From IMG/VR virus record IMGVR_UViG_3300048999_000191: a stretch of DNA of 64,000 nt. One strand, 5' to 3'. Under the pieces are notes generated by a model. The model did no database searches. It was not told where the DNA came from and saw nothing but the letters and a program-made list of their open reading frames with translations. This stretch comes from a virus. Positions 1-61,670 of this stretch are shown piece after piece. The position numbers were made by a program, and so were the translations under genes. Within the stretch, counting starts at the first letter, position 1. Each line of letters opens with the position of its first letter.

Positions 1-432
1 GTACTTCAGCAGCTGTGCGTCCTTCTCGCCGTACAAACGCACACTGGCCTGGTTCTCGGTGCGCGTCCCATCACCGAAGACGATCCCGGCGGTGATCCCG
101 AAGGGAGACGGGGTACTTCGGCTGGCCACGCGGCGCGGCAGCTGCGCAGCAAGCACCATGCCGGACCGCAGCTCGGTGGTCAGCAACTCCTTGACCTTGC
201 TCTTGCTGTCGCTCCAACGTCCGAACCAGCGGTGGTTCGACGTCGCATAGATGACCTTCTCCTGCTTGTTGCGCCGCAGGCTCACCTTCATGAGCGGCTG
301 CACACCGAAGCTGCGCACTTCTGCATTGGTCCAGACCCCGCCCGTGGTCATGAGGTCGTGCTTCGACCCGACGAGATCACCGATCTCGCGCACGCCCTGC
401 TTGGTTGTCACCCGAGTCTCGGCGGCAAAGCA
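1..432 (-). mobile_element. Intein in DnaE (N-terminal part only; truncated by window)
   Basis: After ...EVLGKTWG the frame reads CFAAETRVTTKQG (block A), YATSNHRWF (block B), GITAGIVFGDG (LAGLIDADG motif). Confidence 0.9.
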
Positions 433-2553
433 GCCCCAGGTCTTGCCGAGGACCTCGCGCATCCGCTCGTCGGGGTAGTAGACCTCCTCCTCGCCCTTGC
501 GCCGGGCCAGGTAGCGGTCGGTCAGCCCCGAGCGCGCCGGGCCGGGCCGGACCAGGGTCACCATGTCGGCCAGCTCGTGCAGGCCGCCGGGCTTCATCCG
601 CCGGGACATCGCGGTGCCGATCGCCGAGCCGATCTGGAACAGGCCGAGACAATGGCCCTTCCCGATCTGGTCGTACAGCAGCGGGTCTTCCAGCTCCTCG
701 GTCCAGGCGTAGGGGTTGATGCGCTTGCCGGTGTGCTCGAAGATCAGGTCCATCGCGGTCTGGATCATGTCCAGGTTGGCGATGTTGAGCAGGTCGAACT
801 TCACGTACCCGAGTAGCTCCAGCACCTTCAGGTCGAATTGGGCGATCATCGTGCCGTCCTCGCCCATCCGCAGCGGCAGGTTCTCCGTCAGCGGATGATC
901 CGGGTCGATGATCACGCCCGCCGGGTGCTTGCCGTAGGCCTTCAGCCGCCCGTGGAAGCGCTTGGCGTAGAGGAAGACGTCGGGGTATCGGTCGGCGTAG
1001 GGCTGGAGCAGGTCCCCGGCGCGGTCCCACAGTTCGTCCCAGGACAGCCCCAGACCGGCCGTGTCACCCTCGGCCGCCTCGATGATCTTCGAGCACTCCA
1101 TCATGTCGGTCCAGTGGCCCTCGGGCAGGGTGTCCTTCAGCGCGCGAGCCACCGACTGGATGACGCTCTTGGACTTCAGCCGCATGTGCGTGCCGACGGT
1201 GGCCACGTTGGACTCGCCCCAGCGCTTCGCGACGTAGCCGTACATCTCGGCCTTCTTCGAGCTGGGGAAGTCGATGTCGAAGTCCGGCAGCTCCGTGCGA
1301 CCCTTGGTCATGAAGCGCTCGAAGAGGACGTCGTGCTCGACCGGGTCGATCTCCGTGATGCCGAGCAGGTAGGCCACCAGCGAACCGCCGCCGGATCCGC
1401 GCCCGGGGCCGACCAGGATGCCGGTCCCCTTCGCGTAGCCGACGAGGTCGGCCACCATGAGGAAGTAGCCCGCGAAGCCCTTCGCCGCGATCATCGTGAA
1501 TTCGTTCTCGAACCGTCGCATGTAGGCGGTCGAGCCGTGCTTCTTCCCACTGGTGCGCTCGTCCCAGCGGTCCATGCATTGGGTCAGCAGCCGCTCGATG
1601 TCGTGCTTCGCGGGGTCGGGGTGGTCCTGGGTCTTGCGCGAGTAGACCGGGGTGTGGCTCGACAGCTCGATCTTTGCCGAGCACCTGTCGGCGATCGTCT
1701 GGGTGTTGGTGAAGGCGCGCTCCAAGATCTCGACCAGATAATCTGGACACCCACCGTGCTCTTCGGCGTAGTCCCGGTTCGCACCGAGATAGCCGCGCAC
1801 CTCGATGCCGGGCATGACGTGGTAGTCCTCGTCGCCCTCGAACATCGAGGAGTCGGCCAACTCATCGAGCGTCTTGCCGATGGCCGACGCCAGCCAGACC
1901 TTGTGTGCAGCCTTCTCTTGCGGTGTCGAGTAGTGCGAGTCGCAGGTGATGACCGGTTCGATCTTGTACCGCCAGGCCTCCTCCAGCAGCCAGGCGTTGC
2001 CCCGGAGCTGGTCCTCCTGCATGCCGGTCTGGATCTCCGCATAGAGCCGGTCGCCGAAGATTTCCTTGAGTCGCAGGAGGTTCGAGACGGCCAACTCCTC
2101 GTCGCCCTTGATGAAGGGGTTCAGCACCGGGCCGCCGAGGCACGCCGTCGAACACATGACGCCCTTGTTCAGGCGCTGCAAGGTGTCCCAATCGAGGCGC
2201 GCGTACTTGCCCCACAGACCGTCCCGATAGGATTCGGTGCTCATGGCCCAGAGGTTCTTCAAGCCCTCGTCGTCCATGGCCCACAGGATCAGGTGCCAGT
2301 AGTCGGTGACCTTGCCCTCGCGGGAGAACCGGTCATCGACGAAGTAGGCCTCCAGGCCGAAGATCGGCTTGACACCCTCGGCCTCGCAGATGATCTGAGC
2401 GTCCGGGTGCGCGGCGCAGTTGCCGTGGTCGGTGAACGCGACGGCGGTCTGCCCGTCGGCCTTGACCGCCGCGACGATCTCCTTCGTGGTTGAGAGACCG
2501 TCGAGTGGAGAATACTCAGTGTGAGTATGTAGGTGCACAAAGTTGCCAGACAT
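1..2553 (-). CDS. dnaE: DNA polymerase III alpha subunit (phage), intein-containing; runs off the left edge
   Basis: Missing from the ORF track; manual translation from ATG 2553 gives MSGNFVHLHTHTEYSPLDGLS...AFTDHGN (PHP domain), GPGRGSGGGSLVAYLLGIT, PDFDIDF, KHPAG and KFDLL motifs. Confidence 0.95.
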   Translation of the reverse strand, partial: MSGNFVHLHTHTEYSPLDGLSTTKEIVAAVKADGQTAVAFTDHGNCAAHPDAQIICEAEGVKPIFGLEAYFVDDRFSREGKVTDYWHLILWAMDDEGLKNLWAMSTESYRDGLWGKYARLDWDTLQRLNKGVMCSTACLGGPVLNPFIKGDEELAVSNLLRLKEIFGDRLYAEIQTGMQEDQLRGNAWLLEEAWRYKIEPVITCDSHYSTPQEKAAHKVWLASAIGKTLDELADSSMFEGDEDYHVMPGIEVRGYLGANRDYAEEHGGCPDYLVEILERAFTNTQTIADRCSAKIELSSHTPVYSRKTQDHPDPAKHDIERLLTQCMDRWDERTSGKKHGSTAYMRRFENEFTMIAAKGFAGYFLMVADLVGYAKGTGILVGPGRGSGGGSLVAYLLGITEIDPVEHDVLFERFMTKGRTELPDFDIDFPSSKKAEMYGYVAKRWGESNVATVGTHMRLKSKSVIQSVARALKDTLPEGHWTDMMECSKIIEAAEGDTAGLGLSWDELWDRAGDLLQPYADRYPDVFLYAKRFHGRLKAYGKHPAGVIIDPDHPLTENLPLRMGEDGTMIAQFDLKVLELLGYVKFDLLNIANLDMIQTAMDLIFEHTGKRINPYAWTEELEDPLLYDQIGKGHCLGLFQIGSAIGTAMSRRMKPGGLHELADMVTLVRPGPARSGLTDRYLARRKGEEEVYYPDERMREVLGKTWGCFAAETRVTTKQGVREIGDLVGSKHDLMTTGGVWTNAEVRSFGVQPLMKVSLRRNKQEKVIYATSNHRWFGRWSDSKSKVKELLTTELRSGMVLAAQLPRRVASRSTPSPFGITAGIVFGDGTRTENQASVRLYGEKDAQLLKY

Positions 2554-27594: not shown

Positions 27595-30510
27595 TCACGC
27601 CCCGATCATGAAGGTGTTCGGCGCCTTGGCAATGATGCGCGAGGAGTGGAACACGGGGTACTCGCTGTTGCCGAAGGTCGCATCGATCGCCCGGCCGCCG
27701 GAGGCGTAGAGCGAGAGCTGGCTGTTCGCCGTCCACGGCGACATCTGGGCCATGGCGTAGTTGGTCCCATCGTCGGTGGAAGTCAGGAACCGGACGTTGT
27801 CCACGCCAGGTACATTGTGGACAGTCTGGAGAACATCGGAAACCTGAAGTGACGCGCCGAAGCCGAGGCTGGAGCACAGGGCGCTCAGCGCGATATCGAT
27901 GTTCGTGTTCACCGAGCTGGCCTCGTACGCGCGGTCATAGACGATGGCGAAGTGGAATTTGACCATGCGGCGCAGCCCGCAATGGGTCTGCGCGTCGGTG
28001 CCGACCAGCCGCCACAGAGCGATGTTGTCCTGCACATCGCGGGCGATCCGGTTGTAGTTGTAGGTGATCGCGAACACCGCGTTGTTCGGCGGTACCCGGG
28101 TGGTCTGCCAGGACAGGCCGAACAACGATCCCGGGCTCATCCCGAAGGCGTCTTCGCGCTGGGTGATCCAGTAGTCCGAGCCCTCGGTGTAGGTCACGCC
28201 GTTGATCACCAGGGTGTCCGGCACGGCCAGCACCGGGCCGTAGGCCAGCGGGATGAAGATATTGCCCACCGGAGGCACGGGTGTAGCGGCGCTGGCCTGG
28301 GAGAAGGCCTGGTTGTAGTACGGGTCGTTGAACCCGGAGGTGAACAGCCGTGAGTTCGAGAAGCTCACGCTCTGCGTGGCGACATCGGCGATCGTGCCGT
28401 TGATCCACACGTCGACCCGGTTGTTGATCCCGCCCTTGGCGAAGCGGGTGTTGGCCGGGTCGTTGCGTGAGGCTCTCGGCACGTACTCGAAGTCGAGATC
28501 GTAGATCCCGTCCGGCATGCCGGTCAGCGCGGTCAGTGCCGCAGTGGCGCTGGTCCCGTTGGTCGGGTTCGACGGCGTGAAGGTGAAGTTCGTGCCCTGG
28601 GTGAGCAGGTTCCCCGCGTCGATGTCGGCGCCGCAGTAGACGTTGTCCGGGAAGATGTAGGCCGCCCGGAGCACGGTGCTCGCCGCCGTCCCCGCCACCA
28701 CCTGGATCTGCTCGCGGTAGCGCTTCGAGGACCCGAGCACGTTCACCTGCGTCACCGCGCGGGTGTTCGGCATCGTGGGGTCCTGGGGCGTTGCCAGGGC
28801 GATCGCCTGGTACATGCTCTGGGTCCCCGCCAGCGAGCGGAAGACGGTGTTCCGGAAGCGCGTGCGCAGGTCGGCGTCGGACTCCTGGTTCGAGCCGCCG
28901 GAGAGCGGGCCCGCGTTCACCACCTTGGCGATGCCGGAGACGGCCGTGGCCACGGTGACCAGCATCCCGGCCGCGACGTTGCCGCTCGTGCCCGCCACGA
29001 CCGCCTGAACCGGCACGTCGGCGGTCAGCTGCCCGGGGCTCATCACGGCGGACACGGTGGTCATCACGTAGATGATCGGGTTCGTCTGGGCGACCACCTG
29101 CGTGCCGGGCGGGATGACCAGGGCCGTGGTGGCGGCGAACTGGTCGTTCGGCCGGGTGAAGGTGACCACGCCCTGCGACCGGGACGACGGGATCCGCGTG
29201 ATGCCGAACAGTGCGCAGTTGTGTGCCGCCATGCCGCCGAGCAGCGTGTAGGAGTTGTCCACGTCGACTTCGAGGTTGTGAACGGTCCCCTGGTAGGCGA
29301 CCAGCCTGTGCTCGGCGATAGCGTGGCCCAGCATCCCGTCGAGGATTACCCCGGCAGGAGCGTATGCGCCGCGAGCCAGCTCCGGCGTCGTCTCCCTGGT
29401 GATTTCCGCGATGCGCCGCGCGTACTCGCCCCGCGCCGTGAGCCGGTAGGCGGTCCGCTTGCCTGCGCCGCCTTCCTTCACGTCCATCCGCGTGAAGATC
29501 TTCTTCCGCAGCAGCAGCGCACGGATCTGGTAGACGAGTGCCGGGGACGTCGTGACGAAGTCGGCGACGGTGTCTGTGGTCGAGACGTGGCCGTCGCCTT
29601 GCCAGACGGCGGCCAGCAGGTCGGTGAGGTCGCTGCCGGACCAGAACACTTCCCAGGGGATGTGCTTGTCCGCGCAGCCGTGGCCCAGTAAGCTCCGCAG
29701 TTTTGCGGCGAACTTCTTGCTGAAGACCGTCAGCTGCCGCTCGCCGGAGTTGGGCTTGCTGTGGCTGACCCGGGCGAAGCCCCATTCGCTCTTGATCAGC
29801 TCTTCGATCGTCTCGTGGTACTCGGTCTCGTGTTCGGCCAGCGAAAAGACGATGCGCCCGCACTCAGTGGTCGAGCCCTCGGCGAGAAACCAGCCGTAGA
29901 GCCGCTGAAGGTTCTTGTTCAGCTGCGAGCGCTTCGCCGGTTCCGGGGCTGCGCCCCAGACCACATCGCCCTTCCGCAGCTCTCCGGCGGCGATCCATTC
30001 TCGGCGGACGTGCTCCGTGGACCACCGGGCCCGCGAGCCCGTCCCGCGCAGCGCGAAAGAGCGCACGCCCTTAGCCGGGATGAGCCATTCCCGCTTGGTG
30101 GCGAGCAGCGGATGGTTGCCCGTCATGGACACCGATGGCTGGCCCAGCGGGCGCATCGTCACGATGTCCTCGTCCACGCAGCGGACCGACGAAGCAAGCA
30201 CCGTCCGGTGCTTGCCCGTGTGCGAGATCACCGTCTCACCAGGCCCGACCTCTTCGATCGGACGCGGGCCGTCGGCAGTCACGACAAGCGTGCCCGGGAC
30301 GAAGCAGAAGTCGTCGAGATCGCCGCCGGATTTCGAGTCGATGTCGTACTGGTACTGGATCAGGTGCGAGTCCGAGTAGGCCTCGGCGATCGACTCCGAG
30401 ACGGCGTCGATCAGCTTCCGGGCCACGGTGCCTACGGAGACATCCAGGTCCGGCTCGGCGGCGTTGAGCGCAGCGACCATCTTGGCCGCCACGTCGCCGG
30501 TCGAAGTCAT
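27595..30510 (-). CDS. Baseplate J-like protein with intein
   Basis: Exteins join as SGGDLDDF|CALFGITR; VQAVVAGTSGNVAAG, GGSNQESDADLRTR, VPGVDNV. Confidence 0.88.
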   Translation of the reverse strand: MTSTGDVAAKMVAALNAAEPDLDVSVGTVARKLIDAVSESIAEAYSDSHLIQYQYDIDSKSGGDLDDFCFVPGTLVVTADGPRPIEEVGPGETVISHTGKHRTVLASSVRCVDEDIVTMRPLGQPSVSMTGNHPLLATKREWLIPAKGVRSFALRGTGSRARWSTEHVRREWIAAGELRKGDVVWGAAPEPAKRSQLNKNLQRLYGWFLAEGSTTECGRIVFSLAEHETEYHETIEELIKSEWGFARVSHSKPNSGERQLTVFSKKFAAKLRSLLGHGCADKHIPWEVFWSGSDLTDLLAAVWQGDGHVSTTDTVADFVTTSPALVYQIRALLLRKKIFTRMDVKEGGAGKRTAYRLTARGEYARRIAEITRETTPELARGAYAPAGVILDGMLGHAIAEHRLVAYQGTVHNLEVDVDNSYTLLGGMAAHNCALFGITRIPSSRSQGVVTFTRPNDQFAATTALVIPPGTQVVAQTNPIIYVMTTVSAVMSPGQLTADVPVQAVVAGTSGNVAAGMLVTVATAVSGIAKVVNAGPLSGGSNQESDADLRTRFRNTVFRSLAGTQSMYQAIALATPQDPTMPNTRAVTQVNVLGSSKRYREQIQVVAGTAASTVLRAAYIFPDNVYCGADIDAGNLLTQGTNFTFTPSNPTNGTSATAALTALTGMPDGIYDLDFEYVPRASRNDPANTRFAKGGINNRVDVWINGTIADVATQSVSFSNSRLFTSGFNDPYYNQAFSQASAATPVPPVGNIFIPLAYGPVLAVPDTLVINGVTYTEGSDYWITQREDAFGMSPGSLFGLSWQTTRVPPNNAVFAITYNYNRIARDVQDNIALWRLVGTDAQTHCGLRRMVKFHFAIVYDRAYEASSVNTNIDIALSALCSSLGFGASLQVSDVLQTVHNVPGVDNVRFLTSTDDGTNYAMAQMSPWTANSQLSLYASGGRAIDATFGNSEYPVFHSSRIIAKAPNTFMIGA
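29218..30306 (-). mobile_element. Class-1 intein with LAGLIDADG endonuclease (363 aa) in baseplate J
   Basis: CFVPGTLV start, MTGNHP block B, GWFLAEG and AAVWQGDG motifs, TVHNLEV block F, AAHN/C end. Confidence 0.92.
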
Positions 30511-35610: not shown

Positions 35611-36323
35611 TACTTTCCTCCCTGTCCGCTTGCCGCACTGGATCCAGGAACCGTGCCGGTGACGGAGTTCTGGTACTGCTGGAGGACGTAGCTGTGGATG
35701 TCGGCCGCGCCCTTGCTCTGGAGGTAGCTCGCCAGGTCGGCCGCCGTCATGAGGCCGTTGTACGGACCGCGCTTCCAGCCCAGACCCTTCGAGAGCCGGT
35801 CGATGAAGGCATTCTGGGCCACCTGGGCGAGCTTGCCGGTGTTGTCCTGCACGATGAACAGCGTCAGCGTGTAGCCGTAGGAGTACTTCCCGGTGGTGTG
35901 CGAGACCGTCGACTCACCCTCGATCTCCCGCAGGCTCTTGATGTAGACGTTGAAGTCCCAGTCGTGCACCGGGAGCCCGCGCCGGGTCGTGCTGTTCTGG
36001 TCGTTGTAGAGGAATCGCAGCGTCGGGTGCATCGGCGCCGGGTCGGTGCCGGTCAGCTGGGCCATGGTCGGCCGGGCGCTCTGCTTGTCCACAAGCTTGC
36101 CCACAGCTGTGGAGAAGTCTTCGGCCAGCTGCCAGGACTCCCGCCGGTTCGTCCGATCCTGACCGAACAGGCCCCGGATGGTCATGTCTCCGAAGGTCAC
36201 GCCGTGCACCTGCACCACGCGACCACCGACGGTCGGGGTGACGGCGACGTTCATCTTGTAGGGAATCGACACCTGGGACGGGTCGATCCGGAACCGGACG
36301 CCGCCGATGCTCGCGCTGCCCAT
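35610..36323 (-). CDS. Tail tube initiator-like protein
   Basis: Start MGSASIGGVRFRIDP at TAATG overlap with tape measure. Confidence 0.55.
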   Translation of the reverse strand: MGSASIGGVRFRIDPSQVSIPYKMNVAVTPTVGGRVVQVHGVTFGDMTIRGLFGQDRTNRRESWQLAEDFSTAVGKLVDKQSARPTMAQLTGTDPAPMHPTLRFLYNDQNSTTRRGLPVHDWDFNVYIKSLREIEGESTVSHTTGKYSYGYTLTLFIVQDNTGKLAQVAQNAFIDRLSKGLGWKRGPYNGLMTAADLASYLQSKGAADIHSYVLQQYQNSVTGTVPGSSAASGQGGK

Positions 36324-38785
36324 TACTTCGGTCCCGTCGACTGCGGGGACGGACGTCCGGCCGCCGCCGAGTTGTCCAGGTTCACGTCGCCGCTCGTATT
36401 GACCTGGAACAGCCGCTGCGCCTCCGGGGAGAGCGAGAGCGTGATCGAACCGCCGCCGGTGTTCCCGCTTGCACTGTCGCTGCTGGTGCCCGCACCGATC
36501 TCGCTGGCCACCTTGTCGAAGTCCGAGCCCTGCCAGTCGTTCTTGTCGGAGGTGACTTGCGCGCCGGTGCTTCCGGCGATGTCCTTGACCTGCCTGTTGT
36601 TCAGGTCCTTGTTGGACGAGACGATGGATGCCTGTCCCGACGAGAGCTGGTCGGAGAAGTTCCGGATCGCCTCGCCGAAAGTGACGGCCTTGTCGCCGTT
36701 CTTCGTCTTGACCTTGAACCGGATGTTCGGGTCGGTGCCGTACTCGGAGATCAGTTTCTCGATCACCGGGTCGGACTTGCCGGTGCCCTTGGTCAGCTCG
36801 TTGTAGTAGTCGGAGTTGACCTGGAGCGTGTAGCCCTGCTCGGTCTGGTCGCCATTGAATAGGTTCGACCACATGCCCGCGTCGGACTGCATGTCCTTGC
36901 CGCGCTTGTTCTGGTCCCAGGCGAACTGGCCGAAGCCCTTGCCGGTCGGATCTCCTGTCTGGTTCGGGTTCTTGATCTTGTCGCGCTCGCCCTGGCCGAT
37001 GTTCTTCGGCGTCATCGAGTCCTTCAGGGCGGCGGCCTGGTTCCCGGGGTTGTTGCCCGCCACGTAGTTCACGATGTACTGCGCGATGGCCGAGTCGCTG
37101 GCGTTGGCCATGCTCGGGTCGATCTGACTCACGATGTTCTTGGCCACCGTGATGTCGTAGCCCTGGCTGGCCATCAGCGAGCTGGCCACATTGCTCATCA
37201 GATTCGAGTCGGCCGCGACCTTCTGCTTGCCGCCCTGCTGGCCGATCAGGTCGTTGAGCGTGCTCATGGTGCCGGTGCCCAGGGAACGCATGTACATGTC
37301 TGAGCGCTTCCCCAGCGCCTGCATGGTGATGCCCGGGTTCGTCTGCCCGGCGGCCTCCAGCTGGCTGGGCGTCATGCCCATGGATCCGGCCATCTGGTAC
37401 TTCGAGGTCGGGTCGTTGAGCACCGAGAGCGGGTTCGCGCCGTTGAGCAGGCGGCCGCCCGCGCCGGTCATGTTCGTGGCCGCTTCGGCCAGCTGGCCTG
37501 CCCCGGCACCGCCGGACGCCTGGAGCGCGGCGGAGTACGTCTCGGCGAAGGCCTGCCGCATCACCTGGGCGGACTGGCCGGTCCGGACGGCGGTCTTGGT
37601 GACGTTCTGTAGCTCGCGCGAGAGCCCCTGGAGGCTCGACTGGGCGTACTTCGCCGACGTCGCGATCAGCTGCATGGACTCGTCCTGGCCCATGCCCATG
37701 GTCTTGTAGTTCGAGCTGGCGAAATCCAGGGCACCCGCGCGCCGGTCGCCGGTGTAGCCCAGGCTCGTGACGCCCTGGAACAGCTGCCGGGCGCTTTCCT
37801 CGTCGAAGCCGCCGGAGGAGAAGCGCTGGCCCATCACGTAGCCCTCTTCGGCCATCCGGTTGCCAAGCCCGGAGGTCGAAGCCGAGGATTGGCCGGAGAA
37901 GAACTCCGAGAGGTCGCCCATCAGACCGCCCATGGAGGTCACCGGGTTGCCTCGGTTGTCCATGGAGCTGTTCTGGCCGCCCAGGACGCTCTGGTACTGG
38001 GCGTTCTTGGCCCGCTCGTTGGTGAGCCACTCGGCCGCGTCGTTGACACCCTCCGCCGCCGTGATGGCAGCGCCGATGTAGGGCACCCGGCGCAGGCCCG
38101 CACCGATCCCGCCGTGCGCCAGCGCCCCGGCGGCCCGGCTCATCATCGCGGCGTGCCGCGCGGTGTGTGCGCTGGCGTGCTGGCCCACCGAGGGCGTGCC
38201 GTAGTTCTGGTGGATCGCGGTCGCCAGGCGAGCGTTCACGCGGCTGCCGATGCCGCCGTAGGAGGTGAAGCCGCCTCGGCTGGGGTCGTAGTACCCGCCG
38301 CCGTGCCCTCCGCCGCCTCCACCGCCACCGTGGCCGCCGCCGACTCCGCCACCACCGGCGAGCAGCTGGATCAGGGTGTCCATCTGGTCTCGGTCGACCT
38401 GCCGGTCCCGCGCGGTCTGCTCGGTCATCCGGTTCAGGTTCTCGGTGGAGCGGACCTGAAGGTCGCGCATCATCGCCATGGACGCCTTCAGCTCCGAGGT
38501 GATCTCGCGCGCGGCCTGCTGCATGGCCTCCGAGGACGAGAGCATGGCCTGGAACTGCTCGTTCGAGCCGGTGGCCGCGCCGGTGCCGGTGCCCAGTGCC
38601 GACTTGAGCGCCTCGAAGAAATCCTTGTCGCCGGAGACCAGCTGGACCTTCAGCGGGTCCTTGCCGGATTGGCCCTGCGGACCCATGGGGATCCGGCCCT
38701 GTGCGAGCATTTCGTCGGCGGACGTGGACTGCCGGGGACGCCCCGGCGGCGTCGAGTCACCGCCGCTGCGGTTCTTCTTCGGCAC
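36323..38785 (-). CDS. Tape measure protein
   Basis: 820 aa, Ala/Gly/Gln/Met-rich helical, directly after the chaperone pair. Confidence 0.75.
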   Translation of the reverse strand: MPKKNRSGGDSTPPGRPRQSTSADEMLAQGRIPMGPQGQSGKDPLKVQLVSGDKDFFEALKSALGTGTGAATGSNEQFQAMLSSSEAMQQAAREITSELKASMAMMRDLQVRSTENLNRMTEQTARDRQVDRDQMDTLIQLLAGGGGVGGGHGGGGGGGGHGGGYYDPSRGGFTSYGGIGSRVNARLATAIHQNYGTPSVGQHASAHTARHAAMMSRAAGALAHGGIGAGLRRVPYIGAAITAAEGVNDAAEWLTNERAKNAQYQSVLGGQNSSMDNRGNPVTSMGGLMGDLSEFFSGQSSASTSGLGNRMAEEGYVMGQRFSSGGFDEESARQLFQGVTSLGYTGDRRAGALDFASSNYKTMGMGQDESMQLIATSAKYAQSSLQGLSRELQNVTKTAVRTGQSAQVMRQAFAETYSAALQASGGAGAGQLAEAATNMTGAGGRLLNGANPLSVLNDPTSKYQMAGSMGMTPSQLEAAGQTNPGITMQALGKRSDMYMRSLGTGTMSTLNDLIGQQGGKQKVAADSNLMSNVASSLMASQGYDITVAKNIVSQIDPSMANASDSAIAQYIVNYVAGNNPGNQAAALKDSMTPKNIGQGERDKIKNPNQTGDPTGKGFGQFAWDQNKRGKDMQSDAGMWSNLFNGDQTEQGYTLQVNSDYYNELTKGTGKSDPVIEKLISEYGTDPNIRFKVKTKNGDKAVTFGEAIRNFSDQLSSGQASIVSSNKDLNNRQVKDIAGSTGAQVTSDKNDWQGSDFDKVASEIGAGTSSDSASGNTGGGSITLSLSPEAQRLFQVNTSGDVNLDNSAAAGRPSPQSTGPK

Positions 38786-39253
38786 CTAGAGCCACCCCCC
38801 GTCCTCTCCTCCGGCGATGCGCAGTTCCGTACCGTTGAAGGATCCCGAGGTCATCTCGCCGAGCTGACGCATCAGCGCCTGGTACTCGTCCATGGCCTCG
38901 CTGCCCTTGAAGTCCACGGCCGAGTAGTCCACGCCGAGCTTGCCTTCCTGCGTCTCGACGTCGAGCGACTCGGGATCTTCGTCATCAGTTGGGGTCTTGA
39001 ACCAATCCGCGAACAGGGTCTCGGGCAGGAAGCGCTCGGGCTCGTTGCGCGCGACCAGGGCGGCCCTGAGGATGAGCAGCTCGCGCTCGCCATCGCGCCG
39101 GAAGCCGCTCAGGCGATCGACCCAGTCGAGGATCGTGATCGAGTTGGCCTGCACGTCGGACAGGTGGCGGCCGGTCAGCAGACCCTGACGTTGGGCCAAC
39201 CGCAGTTCTCCCGCCAGCCACGGGTCGACCCCGGTCAGCCCGACGCTTTTCCC
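38786..39253 (-). CDS. Tail assembly chaperone, -1 frameshift extension (gpGT-like)
   Basis: -1 frame GKSVGLTGVDPWLAGELRL... open from the slippery site to 38786. Confidence 0.78.
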   Translation of the reverse strand, partial: GKSVGLTGVDPWLAGELRLAQRQGLLTGRHLSDVQANSITILDWVDRLSGFRRDGERELLILRAALVARNEPERFLPETLFADWFKTPTDDEDPESLDVETQEGKLGVDYSAVDFKGSEAMDEYQALMRQLGEMTSGSFNGTELRIAGGEDGGWL

Positions 39254-39810
39254 ATGGCCGCCAGCACGTCGTCCACCTGGTGATCGAGCTGCAAGCACTC
39301 GTCGAAGATCTTGTCCAGCACCGGGCGCCGGAGGTTCTCCGAGACCCACCGGAATCGGTCGTGCAGGGCCGTCTCCTTGGGGTTGCTCACCACCGGCTCG
39401 GGCAGCTTCGTGCCATCGATGTCCACGAGGTAGGCGGCCACCAGCGCTGTCTGATAGGCGATCTCGGCGGTGACGGTGCTCTGGAAGGGCTCGATGACCT
39501 GGCCGATCTGGAGCCGCTCGGTCTGCGTCGGGGTGGCGATCGTGAAGTGGTGGCCGAACAGCTCGAAGGACCTCGTCAGGGCGCCGACGTAGAGCAGGCC
39601 CTTGAACGGCTGCCGGTGCGCGGGATCGAACTCGGGGATGTCCTCCTCGACCGGCTCGGGAGCGGGCTCCTCCTCCTTGGCCGGTTCCCGGTCCCCAGCG
39701 TGCTCAGGGAACGCCGAACCACTGCCGAGCGCCCGGATCTCCTCGCGGGGGTCTGGGGGCAGCTGGAAGGCCGCTTCAGCGGCTGCCTCGTCGGCGAAGA
39801 GGTCGGGCAT
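39235..39810 (-). CDS. Tail assembly chaperone (gpG-like)
   Basis: Between tube and tape measure; ends AMGKASG; GGAGG RBS. Confidence 0.8.
   Translation of the reverse strand: MPDLFADEAAAEAAFQLPPDPREEIRALGSGSAFPEHAGDREPAKEEEPAPEPVEEDIPEFDPAHRQPFKGLLYVGALTRSFELFGHHFTIATPTQTERLQIGQVIEPFQSTVTAEIAYQTALVAAYLVDIDGTKLPEPVVSNPKETALHDRFRWVSENLRRPVLDKIFDECLQLDHQVDDVLAAMGKASG
39246..39253 (-). other. Programmed -1 frameshift site GGGAAAA(G)
   Basis: ATG GGA AAA GCG near the end of the chaperone gene. Confidence 0.82.
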
Positions 39811-39928
39811 CGAAGGGCCTCCGTGGTACTGTGCTCGCGCGGACCTGCCCCACACATGTGGATCGGCAGGTCTAGCTTGTTTTTTGCTCCCTGTCGTCCT
39901 CCAGGACTGACGGGCAATACAAAGTCTG

Positions 39929-41380
39929 CTACAAAGCCGTCGAGTGCGTGTACGCCACGACGATGCCCTTGGCCACAGCCAGCGCGCCGACCGTGATGGT
40001 GTCGTTGTCGGCGATGTCGACGACCACGCAGTTCCCGGTGAGGATGTTGTCCTCCAGCGTGAACGCCTGGCCGTCCGGGACGACCGCGCAGTAGACCTCC
40101 TCGGTCTCGCCGGTGGGCTCTACCGACTCGATCACCCAGTCCTCGTACTCCCGTTGCGAGGCGAGGTACGGACGGGCGTTCTCCAGGTGGCGACTGCGCA
40201 GGAAGAACTCCTCCGGAAGGTCGCGGACGCTGATGCTGAGCGCGTAGATGTCTCGCATCTTGCCGAAGCCCTCGCGCTGCTCTTTGCGGATTTCGCGCGT
40301 GCGCACGCCCAGCAGGGTGCACACATCCCGCACGTGCTCCAGGTGCTCGCGCTGAGCTGAGGAGAGGACCAGGCTGCCGGTCTTGGACACGTGCCCGTCG
40401 GTGGCCACATATCCGGCCAGCCAGCCGTAGAGAAAGCCTAGGCCGATGTTCAACTGCGGCAGGGTCTTGTACATCTTCGGGAGATCCACCACGCGAGTGC
40501 CGATCGCACCACGGTTGGACTTGATCGTGCGGGTGCGGTTGAGAGGGAACCAGCGGACCAGTTCCGCTTCCTTCTCGTCCCACATCGATACCCCGGCCAC
40601 GTCGCGCGCCTTGCCCTCCACATTGCCGTCGCCGAAGACGATGCCCGCCTGGATGCCCTGGGGCGACAGGCCGAGCTTTGCCGTCCGGTTGGGTCGGAAG
40701 GTCGAGACCAGCACGTCACCGGACTGGAGATCGGTGGTGGTGATCTCCTCCGAGTAGGACTTCTGCGGACGGCGGCCTTGACGGAACCACCGGTGTCCGG
40801 CCGTAGCCCGGATCTCCTTCTTCCGTCCGTTGCGCGTCAGGATGACCGAGTACAGCTCCTGCTCGCCGAACTCCTGGATCTCCGCCGGAGTCCACTGACC
40901 CTTACTGCCGAGCACCATCTGCGTGGTGCCGACCGTCTCGCCGAGGGTCTTGGTGCCATCTTGCGTGAGGTATCGAGTATTACGCTCCATACAGTTATGG
41001 TAGACCTTCCCGCGCGGACGGCGCCCGCCCGGCGGCTGGATGATCGTCTGGCAGGTCACGTAGCTCGGGTCGTTGGCCAGGATCTCGTAGATGTCGACGA
41101 TGTTCTGGGCGTTGCCGAGCCCGGCCAGCTGGTTCCAGATCGGGCCGTCCCACAGCTCGCGGATGGTGAGGTTCAGGGTGCCGCCCGCGAGCACGCGCGA
41201 GGTCGCGATCTCGACAGGGTGCCGTGCGCCGAGCGGGTGGATGAACTGGTAGCTCTGGCCTGCGTCTGAGAACGCCCGCTGGCCGGAGTCCTCTACACCT
41301 TCTAGGAAGACGATCGGCTGACCCCGGTAGTTGAAGGTGCTGAACCCCGAGCCGACGACTCGGACCTTGGTGTCGGGCAT
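39929..41380 (-). CDS. Tail tube protein with intein (mature about 162 aa)
   Basis: Immediately after sheath; exteins join as RGKVYHN|CVVVDI; GTLNLTIRELW. Confidence 0.85.
   Translation of the reverse strand: MPDTKVRVVGSGFSTFNYRGQPIVFLEGVEDSGQRAFSDAGQSYQFIHPLGARHPVEIATSRVLAGGTLNLTIRELWDGPIWNQLAGLGNAQNIVDIYEILANDPSYVTCQTIIQPPGGRRPRGKVYHNCMERNTRYLTQDGTKTLGETVGTTQMVLGSKGQWTPAEIQEFGEQELYSVILTRNGRKKEIRATAGHRWFRQGRRPQKSYSEEITTTDLQSGDVLVSTFRPNRTAKLGLSPQGIQAGIVFGDGNVEGKARDVAGVSMWDEKEAELVRWFPLNRTRTIKSNRGAIGTRVVDLPKMYKTLPQLNIGLGFLYGWLAGYVATDGHVSKTGSLVLSSAQREHLEHVRDVCTLLGVRTREIRKEQREGFGKMRDIYALSISVRDLPEEFFLRSRHLENARPYLASQREYEDWVIESVEPTGETEEVYCAVVPDGQAFTLEDNILTGNCVVVDIADNDTITVGALAVAKGIVVAYTHSTAL
40031..40993 (-). 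mobile_element. Intein with LAGLIDADG endonuclease (321 aa) in tail tube
   Basis: CMERNTRYLT start, ATAGHRWF, AGIVFGDG, WLAGYVATDG, EVYCAVVP, ILTGN/C end. Confidence 0.92.
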
Positions 41381-41411
41381 GCTCCAGGCCCCTTTCAGGC
41401 TGGTCGAGCGA

Positions 41412-42923
41412 TCAGGTCAGGGTCTGGTTCAGGTTCGACACGGCGTCCGCGTTCGAGGTGTCGACGGTGAAGCTGACCAGGATGTAGTTCAGGGGCCACG
41501 GCGGCCGGTACGCGAAGCGGACGTCGATCACCGTCGGGTCGCCCGAGGGCGGGCTCTGCTGGCGCACAGCCAGCGAGTTGTAGTCGACGATCAGGGCGTT
41601 GGTGTTCTTCGCGGTCTCCAGGGCGCCGGAGACGACGCTCTTGACCTGGAGCGCGGTGGCGTCGGTGATCGGGATGCCGATCAGGCCCGAGTTCTCCATG
41701 GTGTCCTGGAGCAGGTTGTAGAGCCCGTCCTGGACCCGCACCAGCGAGATCTCGCGGGTGAGGATGCCGCCGCCGAAATTCGTCGTGACGCCGTGCCGGA
41801 CGCGCAGGCGCCCCTGCCGGTCGGGCTCGACCAGCGCCACGCCACCCTTGGCCAGGGTGTCCTTGTTCGTCGGCGTCAGGGTCTTGAGCACCGAGGCCGT
41901 GATGGCCGAGAAACCCTGGACGGTCTTGTGCGTCAGTGGCATCTGGATGTCCTGGCGCGAGACCACCCCGGCGTAGGCGGCCGCGAGGTAGAAGCCGTCC
42001 ACGGTGACCGTCTGGTTCAGGACGCCGTTGTAGTACTCCAGCTGATTCGGGTAGGCCATGACGATCCGGCTGGAGCCGATGCCGCTCGCCAGGGCCGCCA
42101 CGTTCGCGATCGTGCCCACGTAGGTCTGGTCGAGGCCACAGATGGCCATCCGCAGGATGCCCTTGTTCGCGTCCGCCTGGAGGGCCGCGTTTAGCGTCGC
42201 GAGCATGCCACCGAGAGCCGCCTGGTCGGTTACCCCGTCGAACAGGGGAACCACCAGGTTCACGTTGATGTTGTTCGCCGACAGCGTCTGGTAGGCGTCG
42301 GAGAACTGCTGGGCTACGGTGCCGATCGCGGGGTCGAGCGCGATGGCGTAGATCTGGTTCGCGCCGTTGAGGATGGCCACTCCGGCGGCGAAGGTGATCG
42401 GGCTGACCAGGGCGCCGGTCGTCGGGTCCAGGGCCGGGCCGTACGTCTCCACGATCGAGGTGTAGTCCTCGAAGAAGTTCAGCGAGTGGTAGCTCGCGTC
42501 GGTGTACTGGTAGGTCACCGTGACCTGCGGGTACGCGGTCTCGATCTTGCCGCCGGACGACTTGGTGACCGTCGTGGTCGAGTTCGCCGTGCCACCCGAG
42601 GTGTTCGTGGTGACCGCGTAGTCGTGCGTCACCGCGCCGACGTCCGGCGCGAACAGGTACGGGATGCTCTGGCCGGTGGCGTTCGGGTCGGTGATGTACC
42701 CGCGCATCTGGATTGTTGCCGGGTTGATCCCGCGCTTGGTCAGCTGCACCGCGTTTCCGGCGGCGAAGCTGATGGTCTCGGTGAAGGTGTTGTAGCCGAC
42801 ACCGGACCCGACGATGCACACGACAGTAGGAGCAACCCCGGCCGTGGCGATCGTGGGGGTCTGACCGGCGTCCACGTACACGCCAGGGTGGCGATACTGG
42901 CTGAAATCGATACTGGCGGTCAT
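41412..42923 (-). CDS. Contractile tail sheath protein
   Basis: YRHPGVYV, PLTHKTVQGF, VRHGVTT, REISLVR, YRPPWPLNYILVSF. Confidence 0.9.
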   Translation of the reverse strand: MTASIDFSQYRHPGVYVDAGQTPTIATAGVAPTVVCIVGSGVGYNTFTETISFAAGNAVQLTKRGINPATIQMRGYITDPNATGQSIPYLFAPDVGAVTHDYAVTTNTSGGTANSTTTVTKSSGGKIETAYPQVTVTYQYTDASYHSLNFFEDYTSIVETYGPALDPTTGALVSPITFAAGVAILNGANQIYAIALDPAIGTVAQQFSDAYQTLSANNINVNLVVPLFDGVTDQAALGGMLATLNAALQADANKGILRMAICGLDQTYVGTIANVAALASGIGSSRIVMAYPNQLEYYNGVLNQTVTVDGFYLAAAYAGVVSRQDIQMPLTHKTVQGFSAITASVLKTLTPTNKDTLAKGGVALVEPDRQGRLRVRHGVTTNFGGGILTREISLVRVQDGLYNLLQDTMENSGLIGIPITDATALQVKSVVSGALETAKNTNALIVDYNSLAVRQQSPPSGDPTVIDVRFAYRPPWPLNYILVSFTVDTSNADAVSNLNQTLT

Positions 42924-42956
42924 CGACCCCTCCGGGCAGCAGGTGCTCGTTCGTCA

Positions 42957-42985
42957 GTTGGGCTGGGCACCCGGGGAGCCGACAG
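42957..42985 (-). promoter_or_regulatory. Putative late promoter motif
   Basis: CTGTC-N19-CCAAC-TGAC-GA. Confidence 0.65.
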
Positions 42986-42990
42986 GATGA

Positions 42991-43671
42991 TCAGGTCCAG
43001 TTGGTGCGGTCCCAGTTGCCCGGAGTGGGCGGCGCCGTCGGTGAGCCGGGACCGGGCCACGGTGGTTCGGGGCTGCCCTCGACGTAGTCGATGAAGGTGA
43101 CTCCGGAGAGCGGGACCAGCGCGGTGTTGAGCTGATCGGTCAGGAACTCGCCGCGCACGTCGAACCGACAGGAGATCTCATAGATGATCTCGTCGGTGCC
43201 CCACGGGGTGCCGATCGGCGTGGCGTCGCCCATCGGCTCGATGTCGTCGAAGTTCGCGTTGACCGCGATCAGGTCGTTGCCCTCGATCTTGGTCCGGAAG
43301 CTGGCCAACGCGGGGTTGAAGCGGGCGCCGACGAACACCCGGACGACCTCGTCGAAGAGCCGGTCCCGTTCGTAGCTCGACAGCGCGACGATGGTCATCG
43401 TCACCGAGCCCGAGAAGATCCAGCGGCTGTACTCGATGAGCCGGTTGTTTACCTCGTCCACAGCCGTCTCGACGTGCCCGATCCCGGCGATGCTCAGCTC
43501 GGAGTCATCGGCGTACTGCACCCAGATGCCCGGGTAGTGCGCCTGTTTCACCGGGTATTCGATGGACACCAGCGGCTTGTTCTGGCCCCGGAAGTCGGCG
43601 TTCGGGTGGGTGTCGGTGAAGACCGACTCCAGTGCCTCGACCACGGCGGCCTTGATCGGAACTCGGTACAT
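42991..43671 (-). CDS. Tail terminator/completion protein
   Basis: SIEYP...YPGIWV...ALSSYERDRLFD; position before sheath. Confidence 0.6.
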   Translation of the reverse strand: MYRVPIKAAVVEALESVFTDTHPNADFRGQNKPLVSIEYPVKQAHYPGIWVQYADDSELSIAGIGHVETAVDEVNNRLIEYSRWIFSGSVTMTIVALSSYERDRLFDEVVRVFVGARFNPALASFRTKIEGNDLIAVNANFDDIEPMGDATPIGTPWGTDEIIYEISCRFDVRGEFLTDQLNTALVPLSGVTFIDYVEGSPEPPWPGPGSPTAPPTPGNWDRTNWT

Positions 43672-43672
43672 G

Positions 43673-44389
43673 TCAGAGCCCTCCTCGGGTCAGGAAGTGC
43701 TCCCACTCGGCCGCGTCGGTCGCGTAGACGGTGGTAAGCGGGACATTCGAGCGGAAGGCCACTCCGGAGAGCGCGGCGTTGAGGAACTGGAGGGCGCGCA
43801 GGCCCGGGTGTCGCCAGCGCACGCCGACGTTGCCCGCTGCGATCTGGCCGGACGCTCCTCGGCCCCAGCCCATGCCGTCGGAGCGGCGGCTGATCCGACC
43901 GGGCGCGCCCGGGTAACTGGCCACCGTCCACACGGTCTCCATCTCGCCAGTCCACTTGTTCCGGCGGCGGACCTGCTTGCGCTGCCCGATCGGCGCCGCG
44001 CGGCGGAAGATGAGCACCTGGGTCCGGCCGTCCATCGTGGTGCGAACGCGGGTCTTCGGGTTCTTCGCCCGGATCCGGCCGTCCTCGTCGGACACCCACA
44101 TCGGCACGGTCTTGCCCGCCAGGCTCCGCATGGTGCGTGGGCCGGTGCCCTGCTCCATGAACCAGGTCCAGCTGTCCGGGAAGTAGATCCCGAACCAGCC
44201 CTCCTCGTAGATCGGTGTCAGGCGGCTGGCCGTGGCGCCGGTGACGCGCGGCATGCTCATCCGGGCCGTGTAGACCGCGTCGATCGCGAGGTAACGCGTG
44301 ACGTCCCGGCCGTACCCCTCGGCGCGCATCACCATCCGGTCGGGGGTGCCGGACCCGAGTCGGAGGATCTGCGCGGTGATGGAGGCCAT
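43673..44389 (-). CDS. Neck/tail completion protein (basic)
   Basis: FMEQGTGP, VRWRHPGL, FL; Arg-rich. Confidence 0.55.
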   Translation of the reverse strand: MASITAQILRLGSGTPDRMVMRAEGYGRDVTRYLAIDAVYTARMSMPRVTGATASRLTPIYEEGWFGIYFPDSWTWFMEQGTGPRTMRSLAGKTVPMWVSDEDGRIRAKNPKTRVRTTMDGRTQVLIFRRAAPIGQRKQVRRRNKWTGEMETVWTVASYPGAPGRISRRSDGMGWGRGASGQIAAGNVGVRWRHPGLRALQFLNAALSGVAFRSNVPLTTVYATDAAEWEHFLTRGGL

Positions 44390-58829: not shown

Positions 58830-61670
58830 TCAGCTGAAGATGTCGGACGGATCGGCGTCCTGGTGGGCAAGGGCTGCTTCCAGCAGCTCGTAGTGGGTCC
58901 CCTCGATCTTGAGGTCCCCGAGGTTGCGCGCCTTGCGGCCGTCGTTCCCCTCGTTGATCAGCGCCTGTTGCTCGGCGAAGTCGAACTTGGCCGCCGCCTC
59001 CTTCGCGAGGTGGGCCTTCGCGGCCGCCGCGATGTCGTCGTCGGCTTTGCTCGCGCCCGCCGCCAGCTCCTGCCCGGCCGCCGTGCGCTGGAAGGCGGCG
59101 ATCACGTCGGCCACCTCCTGGCTCTCCGGCACCGCGCTGGCGTGGTAACTGTTCGGCAGCGAACTGCCGCCGTCGAGCAGGTGGATGTTCGCGTCCTGGT
59201 CCGGCGCCACCTGTGCGGGCGGGTTGTCCGGGATGGGGTCCAGGTCGGCCGGGGTCGCCTCCATCGGGCGCATGGTCGCGTCCTCGTCGCCGTAGGTCGT
59301 CGGCAGAGCGGGCTCGGGTTCGTTGTGCAGCACCGCGTCGAAGCCCAGCGACGGAGTCAGCGGCTCGGGGTTCGCGTCCAGGTTGTTCCAGTTGTCCGGA
59401 TCCTCCCCGGCGGCCCAACCGGTACTGGCCGGGTTGGTGGTGTTCGAGTGCGCGGGCTCGCTCGTACCGCGCCCCGGCTGCGGGTTGGTGTTCGAGATCG
59501 GGTCCCAGGCGCTGGCCTGCTTCGGCGCGTCCAGCGAAGCCTTGGTGATCTCGTTCCACGGCGTATGCGCCTTGACCTCGGGCCGGAGCGCCGGATTCTT
59601 CTTCGCGTGCTCGACCTCCCACCAGGCAGCCTGCTCGTGGCAGTCGCCCTTGGGGTCGTCCGGGTTAGGCACCACTCGGCCGTCCTTCATGGACAGGTCC
59701 TTTTCGGACGGGATCACCACGACGTGTCCCTGGTACACCCCGTTCGGAGAGGTCCAGGTGTGCTTGACCACGCCGTGCAGCGGGAACTCCTGGCCGATCT
59801 CTTCCTCAAATTCCCTGATCCCCGCGTGCAGGCTGGTGCGGTCGCCGTCCTCGTGGTGGCCTCCGGGTAGCTCCCAAAGACCTCGTGCCGGATCTTTCTC
59901 GTCGTCGAGCCCGCGCTGGAGCATCAGCACGCGGCCGGTGTCGTGTGCCTTCAGGGCGATGCCGGAGACCTTCGGGCCGGGCGGGTTGCTCTTGGCGGCC
60001 TCGTGGTGGTGTTCGTGGCCCTCGCCGCCCAGCGGCGCCCCGCAGTGCGGACAGCGGTGGTGCTCGACGGCCTCTACGCCGATGAAGCCCCCGCAGTGCG
60101 GGCAGCGGCGCTCGCCGTCGTCTTCGTGGTGCTCGGCGGTCTTCCACAGCAGTACAGCCGTACGGTGACGCACTCCGGCGCGCACCAGGTTGCCGACGAC
60201 CTCGGCCGGGTCGGCGTCCTCGTCGCGCAGCCGGGCGACCAGCGACCCGATCAGCGAGCCCTCGTAGGGCCGGGCAAAGACATGGGCGCCCTCGTCCGGG
60301 TCGTACCGGACGATCGATCGCTCGCGCGAGGTCGGCTCGGCGGGGTGGATCTCCTTGCCGAACATGCCCTGGCTCTGGGCCTCGAACTGGAGCGCCAGCG
60401 CGTGCGAGCACTTGCGGCCCTCGAACCGCTGGAAGCCGGGGCTGCGTTCGAAGGCGTAGGCCGCCCACTTGCAGCCGCAGGTCCAGTCGGCCACCTTGTG
60501 CGTGCCCGGCCGGTAGACCAGCAGTGCCTCGTAGGTGCCGTGGTCGCCCTTGACGTGGCCGCCGACGCCGTCGTTCGAGGCGATGACGATCGTCACCCCG
60601 CCCTCGGCGCGGATCCGCTTCGCCTTGCGTTGGACGTCGGCCCAGCTGGCCGTCACGTGGAAGCCAAACTCGCGATCACGCGCGGCCGTGCGCAGCATGG
60701 TCGCCGCCTCCGGGGTCAGCCTGCCTCGGAAAGCTCCTCCAGTTGGGCTTCGATCTTCTCGATGGCCCGCTCCACCTCCGGAGTTGACTCCTTCTGGTGC
60801 AGCTCGGCCAGCAGAGCTTCCAGCTTCTCCCGCGTGGGCGCCTCGATCGTCATCGGGTTCTCCGTCCAGGTGTCGCCCGACTACCCGAGCAGCGTCGCTC
60901 GGCTCGGGGTGATGATGATGCTGGGCATACAGTTCGCCGATCAGTTCCGACGCGCTCGTTGCGGCATAGGGCCCGACGTGGTTGATGAAGTGCTCGCGGT
61001 TGTCCAGCATCCAGCGGTACTTGCTGGACCCGTGCTTATACGGGGTCGTTCCGGGAATCGTCTTCGCGATCCTGTTGAGCAGGTGCGAGCGCTCCTCGTT
61101 GCCGCCGTCCTCGTCGTCGGCAGGGACTTCGTGCTTGCTGAAGTCCAGTGCGTGCCCACTTTCGTGGGTCAAGACGTGACTTTTCAACGGCGTGCTCCCG
61201 TGCTTGGAGAGGTATCCCTTGGAGATCACGACTCCGGGGATTTTCGGATCGTGCTCCATGCTCCGCGCCAAGCCACGGTGGACGCCGATCCTGTTCCGTT
61301 CCGGCGAAAAATACGCGACGGTGTTGTCCTCCATCGCCCCGTCATGTTTCGGGCTGGAGATGCTGACATTCGGCCTTTTCCCGGCGGGCAGATAAACCAG
61401 GTGCCGGGACAGTTGCGCGGCAATGGGAGCCTTGACCTCGGGCTCCTCCGTGAGGTGGGTGTTCACCTCGAACTTCGGGACGCCGTGCTCTTGGTGGTGT
61501 ACGGCCAGTGGGTGATGCCCCTCGCCGTACGCCTCGTCTTCGGGCCCCGGGTCGTCCTTCAGGTACTGGTAGTGCTGCGTGAGTTTGGTCGTGCGCTCTT
61601 CGTGCGTGTCGTGCGGGTGCAGCAGAGGCAATCCGGATTCGGGAGTCAGCTTCTGAATCATCACGCCCAC
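58830..61670 (-). CDS. Polyvalent protein: zincin peptidase + SWIM Zn finger + Zn ribbon + Nudix hydrolase
   Basis: HESGH...[12 protein letters not shown]; WTCGCKW...CSH; CPHC x2; WELPGG...REFEEEIG. Confidence 0.75.
60716..60853 (-). CDS. Nested 45-aa helical ORF in an alternative frame
   Basis: [45 protein letters not shown]; GGAG RBS; GC3-typical codons. Confidence 0.5.
   Translation of the reverse strand: MTIEAPTREKLEALLAELHQKESTPEVERAIEKIEAQLEELSEAG

Follow-up and report, generated by a model that had tools for sequence, protein, structure and literature searches.

Background

Inteins are found overwhelmingly in proteins of replication, repair, nucleotide metabolism and DNA packaging. 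In a survey of mycobacteriophages (Kelley 2016, PMC5050341), all the phage intein hosts are reported to bind nucleic acid, and include TerL, RecB-like, RDF, TOPRIM, NT, portal, ThyX and helicase proteins and methylases. The present analysis concerns an intein in the predicted tail tube protein encoded by the IMG/VR virus record IMGVR_UViG_3300048999_000191, of which a stretch of 64,000 nucleotides, hereafter referred to as the window, was analysed. Similar to the inteins of the survey, this element is phage-borne, associated with a LAGLIDADG endonuclease and sporadic in occurrence, and has a residue other than His at the penultimate position, as those inteins often do; the cluster C myoviruses, which are among the host phages of the survey, carry a homologue of the window's tube protein. 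It differs from them in its host, since the survey lists no tail or tube host and the words 'tail' and 'capsid' are absent from its main text. A literature search revealed no tail tube protein described as an intein host; the phage hosts found were terminases, portal proteins, polymerases, helicases, reductases and similar proteins.

Among the inteins of solved structure, PI-SceI (1vde, 1lwt), PI-PfuI (1dq3), TliVMA and PhoVMA (7qss, 7qst) and PI-PkoII (2cw7) have the same organisation as the tube intein, namely a HINT domain interrupted by a two-motif LAGLIDADG endonuclease, and share with it Cys1, a terminal Asn and Cys at position +1. Unlike them, the tube intein carries a WCT triplet and ends in Gly-Asn instead of His-Asn; it is 11-16% identical to them and has no sequence-level match in the PDB. 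It is also smaller (321 aa) than these LAGLIDADG inteins, which reside in ATPase, polymerase or reductase hosts.

The WCT triplet (Trp B:12, Cys F:4 and Thr G:5) defines the class 3 inteins, in which the block-F Cys, and not residue 1, attacks the splice junction on the N-terminal side (PMC2807308, PMC5222942, PMC7664689). By definition these inteins lack a nucleophile at position 1, and their +1 residue is nearly always Ser or Thr. Ser1 or Cys1 was reported in three of 37 WCT inteins, whose class was left open, and only one of the WCT inteins that have no N-terminal nucleophile had Cys at +1 (Tori 2010, PMC2807308). The tube intein resembles class 3 members such as mycobacteriophage Bethlehem DnaB, Dra Snf2 and Msm/Mch DnaB1 in its invariant WCT triplet and its phage or actinobacterial setting.

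The comparisons reported here make it very probable that the element is a genuine, splicing-competent and horizontally mobile intein residing in the sole tail tube gene seen in the window, which would belong to an uncultured actinobacterial-type myovirus of ~150 kb. It is a well-supported intein of a known kind and an ordinary selfish element, the unusual part being its host protein.

Results and discussion

An interrupted tube gene and its empty allele

An open reading frame (ORF) of 483 codons followed by a stop, identified from the ORF list and its translation at 39929..41380 on the minus strand, encodes in a single frame the predicted tail tube precursor of 53.7 kDa. The stretch 40031-40993 within it is free of stops and translates to 321 aa, with Cys as the first residue, Thr-Gly-Asn as the last three and Cys as the residue that follows. 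The N-terminal (129 aa) and C-terminal (33 aa) flanking parts, or exteins, add up to 162 aa. The initial annotation had described a 321-aa intein with an endonuclease splitting a protein of about 162 aa, 33 residues from its C-terminus, and both its coordinates and its lengths are exactly those found here; the tryptic peptide that it proposed across the junction, VYHNCVVVDIADNDTITVGALAVAK, is the correct one for the predicted spliced product.

The strongest sequence evidence for the intein comes from its absence in close relatives. A scan of IMG/VR with the N-extein yielded 18 related contigs, many of them of ~150 kb, and the tube gene is uninterrupted and 162-194 aa long in 17 of the 18. The remaining contig, L008 (IMGVR_UViG_3300036772_000367; 155 kb), has six additional bases at 4031-4036 which create an in-frame TAG at codon 12 of an intein-less tube gene (...RVVGS, stop, SGFSTF...); an error of assembly, a defect of the genome or read-through could account for it. 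In two contigs, L003 and L004, the tube protein is 162 aa long, reads ...GKVYHN^CVVVDIADNDT... at the junction (the caret marks the insertion site here and below) and has two substitutions (V24A, N90G) relative to the joined exteins of the window. The DNA flanking the insertion site, over ~3.5-3.9 kb on each side, is 93-95% identical to the window in L003 and 88-91% in L004. The alignment of the window with L003 breaks at 40992 and 40033 with an overlap of 5 nt, because AAC^TG is present at both junctions; the empty site of L003 reads ...TATCACAAC^TGCGTGGTCGTCGACATCGCC... at the DNA level. Compared in this way, the window and these two contigs present a precise presence/absence polymorphism.

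The mismatches between the window and L003 amount to 23 of 387 nt in the N-extein and 15 of 102 nt in the C-extein (stop codon included); they are evenly spread, with no co-conversion tract evident beside the insertion site. A foreign base composition of the intein was considered and rejected as a diagnostic feature, the differences from the exteins being small (GC 0.646 versus 0.661; GC3 0.863 versus 0.914). A megablast search with positions 38000-44000 found no near-identical DNA among isolated phages, and the window's phage is without a cultured close relative.

Fold, catalytic residues and family of the intein

The AF2 model of the precursor has pLDDT values of 94-98 across the intein (aa 130-450). 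Sequence searches of the PDB gave no meaningful match for either the intein or the tube profile, and fold searches were therefore used. Foldseek matched the intein to TliVMA, PI-PfuI, PI-SceI, PhoVMA and PI-PkoII (E 8e-13 to 2e-6, probability 1.00) and its central domain to I-DmoI; the confident model together with these matches to solved inteins identifies a HINT fold. In the Pfam search, LAGLIDADG_3 was matched above its cut-off at aa 319-372 (E 3e-6), while the match to Intein_splicing, at 21.2 bits, lies below its cut-off of 35.8. The endonuclease domain shows the alpha-beta-beta-alpha-beta-beta-alpha pattern of a two-motif LAGLIDADG pseudo-dimer, with the motifs ...IVFGD251G... and ...YVATD328G... 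invariant.

A further ten proteins from metagenomes, 457-493 aa in length, resemble the precursor over their full length (47-69% identity) and carry an intein at the same site. Though the 11 tube inteins are only 40-71% identical among themselves, the catalytic set of C130, T193/H196, N450 and C451 is invariant in all of them, the penultimate residue being Gly and not His. The residues invariant in 11 of 11 are Cys1, T193/H196/W198, GDG250-252, DG328-329, C431 and T448-G449-N450-C451. The residues for splicing and for endonuclease catalysis have thus been kept under constraint across divergent copies.

Another ~75 proteins share the intein part alone, with 38-44% identity. Their hosts are mostly DNA primases (zinc-finger/Toprim), along with RecA, DinG, ribonucleotide reductase and other enzymes, so that the family relatives sit in enzymes of replication, repair or nucleotide metabolism, unlike the tube intein with its structural tail protein. 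Nearly all the family members carry the signature Cys1, TxxHRW, VxCAVVP and ILTGN^C, and more than 70 members residing in essential genes typically have a Gly-Asn end. Such an end occurs commonly among the inteins of phages and permits splicing (Kelley 2016, PMC5050341).

In many of the family hosts the last residues of the N-extein, ahead of Cys1, are (Y/F)-(H/N)-N or (Y/F)-H, and in the primases a CxxC zinc-finger motif follows the intein. On its N side the tube site, Y-H-N^C, is similar, and this likeness might have facilitated an ectopic jump. Three of the intein-bearing tube proteins (P0003, P0008 and P0010) bear the JGI names 'DNA primase' or 'LAGLIDADG DNA endonuclease family protein', labels which stem from the relatives of the intein and not from the host protein.

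Class of the intein

The WCT triplet is present in the tube intein as W198, C431 and T448, all invariant. However, the other hallmarks of class 3 are lacking: Cys1 is invariant in the tube inteins, with Pro1 in two family members only, and the +1 residue is Cys451 in place of Ser or Thr. With two defining features absent, an assignment to class 3 was rejected, and the tube intein is, from its residues, best described as a WCT-bearing Cys1 intein, set apart from the class 3 inteins by both Cys1 and Cys+1.

The two exceptional family members, P0017 and P0043, have Pro instead of Cys at position 1, as does the Bethlehem prototype, and retain the WCT triplet and TGN^C. They would need the class 3 route to splice, which hints that the family can do without Cys1. 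A family combining Cys1, WCT and Cys+1 may splice by the class 1 route or by that of class 3 and may represent a natural bridge between the classes.

The host protein as a contractile-tail tube

In the PHROGs search, precursor aa 3-132 match positions 2-125 of 155 in phrog_2756, annotated as 'virion structural protein', and the homology of the host protein thus stops at the start of the insert. This was the only family matched; no curated tube family was found by sequence in Pfam or the PDB, where a profile search returned nothing meaningful, and a search of NCBIfam returned only noise. A structure was therefore modelled for the 162-aa empty allele, two residues off the window's spliced product, from an alignment of 115 sequences (pLDDT 82.8, pTM 0.70). 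Foldseek matched it, with probability 1.00, to the tail tubes of the contractile systems phage 812, diffocin, PVC, AFP, phiCD508 and Pam3; lambda gpV and Hcp ranked lower, likewise with probability 1.00. Target-normalised TM values were 0.6-0.72 for the tubes of phage 812, diffocin, PVC, AFP, Pam3 and lambda gpV. The initial annotation had made its reading depend on the joined exteins modelling as a tube fold, and the empty-allele protein does so.

The gene order also agrees with this assignment. As the initial annotation had stated, the gene lies between sheath and chaperones, with a sheath gene upstream (phrog_2839) and a tail assembly chaperone gene downstream (phrog_2792), and the order sheath, tube, chaperone, tape measure recurs in two other intein-bearing contigs. 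Mycobacterium phage Alice has the same order, with gp120 as the sheath, gp121 as a virion structural protein, gp123/124 as the chaperones and gp125 as the tape measure, and so does Gordonia phage Stormageddon (gp35-43). Alice gp121 and Stormageddon gp36 are 34-35% identical to the exteins over aa 1-131 and are both intein-less. In contrast to the window's protein, phrog_2756 and the solved tubes of phage 812, diffocin, PVC and AFP are likewise without an intein.

In the 162-aa model, the insertion point between N129 and C130 falls in the middle of a long strand (123-135), and the remainder of this strand, together with the terminal hairpin, comes from the C-extein. In the model of the full precursor the C-extein is not docked (pLDDT ~30), which agrees weakly with an unspliced precursor being unable to complete the tube fold. 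The tube-family profile matches only the 483-aa ORF, and hence no second, intein-free tube gene was found in the 64-kb window. No terminator or promoter was found on the coding strand around the tube gene, and the spacer between the tube and chaperone genes folds no better than shuffled sequences (z = -0.67).

Proposed mechanism

The 53.7-kDa precursor would be processed by its HINT domain, which has all the residues needed to excise the 36.2-kDa intein and to join Asn129 to Cys451, giving a 162-aa subunit of 17.4 kDa. [quoted passage not shown] As the insert interrupts a beta-strand of the tube and the final strands are built from the last 33 residues, the unspliced precursor is unlikely to polymerise. 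Each tube subunit in the virion has thus probably been spliced; the earlier proposal that every subunit must splice is a reasonable one, given the position of the insert in mid-strand and the lack of an intein-free tube gene in the window. It follows from the chemistry that one free intein would be released per tube subunit.

The freed intein is predicted, from its conserved catalytic motifs and its distribution, to be a two-motif LAGLIDADG endonuclease. In mixed infections it probably cleaves the tube allele that lacks an intein, across ...TAYCAYAAC^TGCGTSGTCGTCGACATC..., and the intein would then be copied into the cut allele by repair. Its behaviour is that of a selfish element from which the phage draws no demonstrated benefit.

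Distribution, mobility and alternative explanations

Tube alleles with an intein are represented by ~11 proteins and those without by at least 499 clusters (90% identity), an occupancy of ~2%. On an extein tree of 11 carriers and 80 non-carriers, the carriers need 10 changes, the same as random labels, and the well-supported branches alone force four; a single carrier clade is rejected by the AU test (p = 2e-11). The extein of P0006 is identical to that of the intein-less P0179. P0005 and P0008 have exteins that are 96% and inteins that are 62% identical, while among the inteins that of P0008 has its closest counterpart (71% identity) in P0004, and the exteins of these two are 78% identical. 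Overall, the identities of exteins and inteins are poorly correlated (r = 0.26). The scatter of the carriers and the decoupled divergence of exteins and inteins imply repeated gain, loss or replacement at one site, the behaviour expected of a homing intein. The target region, Y-H-N/G-C-V-I/V-T/V-D-I (slashes separate alternative residues), is among the best-conserved parts of a family with a mean column identity of 16%, and conserved sites are typical for intein insertion. The window's nearest relatives, with 98% identical exteins, are intein-less, and the nearest sampled tube intein is only 65% identical to the window's, so that no recent donor is seen among the sampled tube inteins. Such a distribution speaks for patchy mobility of the ordinary kind and not for a sweep.

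Several considerations weigh against a splicing and mobile intein in the only tube gene of a viable phage. Splicing, DNA cleavage and homing are all deduced from sequence, and the viability of a phage known from a metagenome contig is an assumption. The search for a spare tube gene covered 64 kb of a genome estimated at ~150 kb. Gly in place of the penultimate His could slow the cyclisation of Asn. Further, the endonuclease domain is the least conserved part of the intein (35-61% identity, versus 46-70% in the HINT part), and some copies may therefore be inactive.

The last of these points bears on an explanation in which the intein splices while its endonuclease has decayed or is seldom effective, persistence being mainly vertical with occasional recombination, as at a late stage of the homing cycle. 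The faster divergence of the endonuclease domain, the low occupancy of the tube clusters and the distance to the nearest sampled tube intein all accord with it. Nevertheless, the two catalytic LAGLIDADG motifs do not vary among the 11 divergent copies, and the scatter of the carriers on the extein tree, together with near-identical exteins that harbour 62% identical inteins, needs repeated invasion. This explanation is considered unlikely.

The tail tube is a high-copy late protein, and it has been suggested that such a host would flood the cell with endonuclease, making homing, or the destruction of intein-less co-infecting genomes, unusually efficient and the intein a weapon between phages. 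One intein would be freed for each of the many tube copies of a virion, the 820-aa tape measure implies a long tail, and the element has clearly moved between alleles. Yet no sign of a sweep is seen among at least 499 intein-less clusters and ~11 carriers, and the closest relatives of the window (98% extein and ~94% DNA identity) are intein-less. Release late in infection would coincide with packaging and leave little time for repair-mediated copying, and endonuclease dose rarely limits homing. Such flooding is therefore judged quite improbable.

It is more doubtful still that splicing has a checkpoint role for the phage, such as a gate, dependent on redox state or time, that delays tube polymerisation, possibly in concert with the intein of the baseplate J protein. 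Cys1, Cys F:4 and Cys+1, three cysteines in all, lie at the active site, the baseplate J intein is a second, unrelated one in the same window, and conditional splicing based on cysteines is described for other inteins in work cited in passages of PMC5050341 and PMC6195587. However, ~98% of the related phages build the same tube without an intein, and identical exteins occur with and without it, which argues that the intein is dispensable for the phage. Overall, there is little expectation that the intein is more than a passenger, be it as a cysteine or redox gate on tail assembly or through a late burst of endonuclease directed against intein-less co-infecting relatives; if either were true, the choice of a structural host protein would have functional consequences.

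That the insert is dead, within a phage genome that is itself defective, or is a domain insertion that does not splice, is hardly credible. The contig is of metagenomic origin, the penultimate His is missing and the curated intein models score weakly; yet 321 codons remain open, no catalytic position varies among copies of 40-71% identity, the fold is confidently modelled and the same Gly-Asn end is usual in family members residing in essential genes.

A mobile intein that re-invades a high-copy, polymerising tail protein would be a clear exception to the bias towards nucleic acid-binding hosts and would indicate that this bias is not absolute. The tube intein offers a test case for the cause of the bias, which may be the timing of endonuclease expression or the conservation of target sites. 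Intein-bearing tube genes are mis-annotated, and a detection of tube genes based on length will miss them. The coordinates of the tube locus are listed in Table 1.

Table 1. Features of the intein-bearing tail tube gene and its neighbours (positions in the window; aa numbering of the precursor)
Feature	Position	Strand	Evidence
Tail tube precursor gene	39929..41380	-	Two separate matches of the tube-family profile: hmm 1-128 (E 4e-52), hmm 126-158 (E 1e-8)
N-extein, aa 1-129, end ...GKVYHN	40994..41380	-	phrog_2756 match; 98% identical to intein-less L003/L004 alleles
Intein, 321 aa, 36.2 kDa, aa 130-450: predicted HINT domain interrupted by LAGLIDADG endonuclease domain	40031..40993	-	Missing from L003/L004; model and Foldseek
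Cys1 (precursor C130), block A nucleophile	40991..40993	-	Invariant in 11/11 tube inteins and in nearly all family members
Block B, T193-A-G-H196-R-W198 (Thr B:7, His B:10, Trp B:12)	40787..40804	-	T193, H196, R197, W198 invariant; TxxHRW family-wide
LAGLIDADG endonuclease domain, ~aa 236-410	40151..40675	-	Pfam LAGLIDADG_3; helix/strand pattern of the model; I-DmoI and PI-SceI fold matches
LAGLIDADG motif 1, GIQAGIVFGDGN, aa 242-253	40622-40657	-	G250-D251-G252 invariant
LAGLIDADG motif 2, LYGWLAGYVATDGHV, aa 317-331	40388-40432	-	D328-G329 invariant
Block F, EVYC431AVVPDGQAF, Cys at F:4	40061..40099	-	C431 invariant; xVxCAVVP conserved family-wide
Block G, N-I-L-T448-G449-N450, plus Cys+1 (C451)	40028..40048	-	T448, G449, N450, C451 invariant; junction DNA ...GGGAAC^TGCGTG...
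C-extein, 33 aa, CVVVDIADNDT...HSTAL	39932..40030	-	Protein-identical to the C-terminus of the L003/L004 empty allele
Stop codon of precursor gene	39929-39931	-	
Tail sheath gene, 503 aa, upstream neighbour	41412..42923	-	phrog_2839 tail sheath, E 4e-75; weak Pfam Phage_sheath_1
Tail assembly chaperone gene, 206 aa, downstream neighbour	39235..39855	-	phrog_2792 (E 5e-15) / phrog_2992
ORF overlapping the chaperone gene	38786-39349		
Probable tape measure gene, 820-aa ORF	36323-38785		Position after the chaperones

Other inteins and features of the window

An intein of the same family occurs in the finger domain of DNA polymerase III alpha (DnaE) at 1-432 on the minus strand, inside an ORF (1..2553, minus strand) that is cut by the start of the window. 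It is 41% identical to the tube intein over its first 148 aa and matches the family HMM with an E-value of 4e-41. A recent jump from DnaE to the tube gene was considered and rejected, as this identity lies within the ordinary range of the family members to the tube intein (median 38%, top 49%).

The baseplate J intein is a third and unrelated one, located in a 971-aa Baseplate_J-like protein (27595-30510, minus strand). It was identified by Pfam matches to Hint_2 (aa 69-115) and LAGLIDADG_3 (aa 298-369) and stands ahead of the Baseplate_J domain (aa 432-574). With the tube and baseplate J inteins, two essential tail proteins of one phage are intein-bearing. A 91-nt tRNA-Tyr predicted by ARAGORN at 28286-28376 on the plus strand, opposite the ORF of the baseplate J protein and its intein, is probably a false positive.

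Elsewhere in the window, a 772-aa ORF (61661-63979, minus strand) has a terminal Arr-ms (rifampin ADP-ribosyltransferase-like) domain, and the adjoining 946-aa ORF (58830-61670, minus strand) has NUDIX and RZ-type zinc-finger matches.

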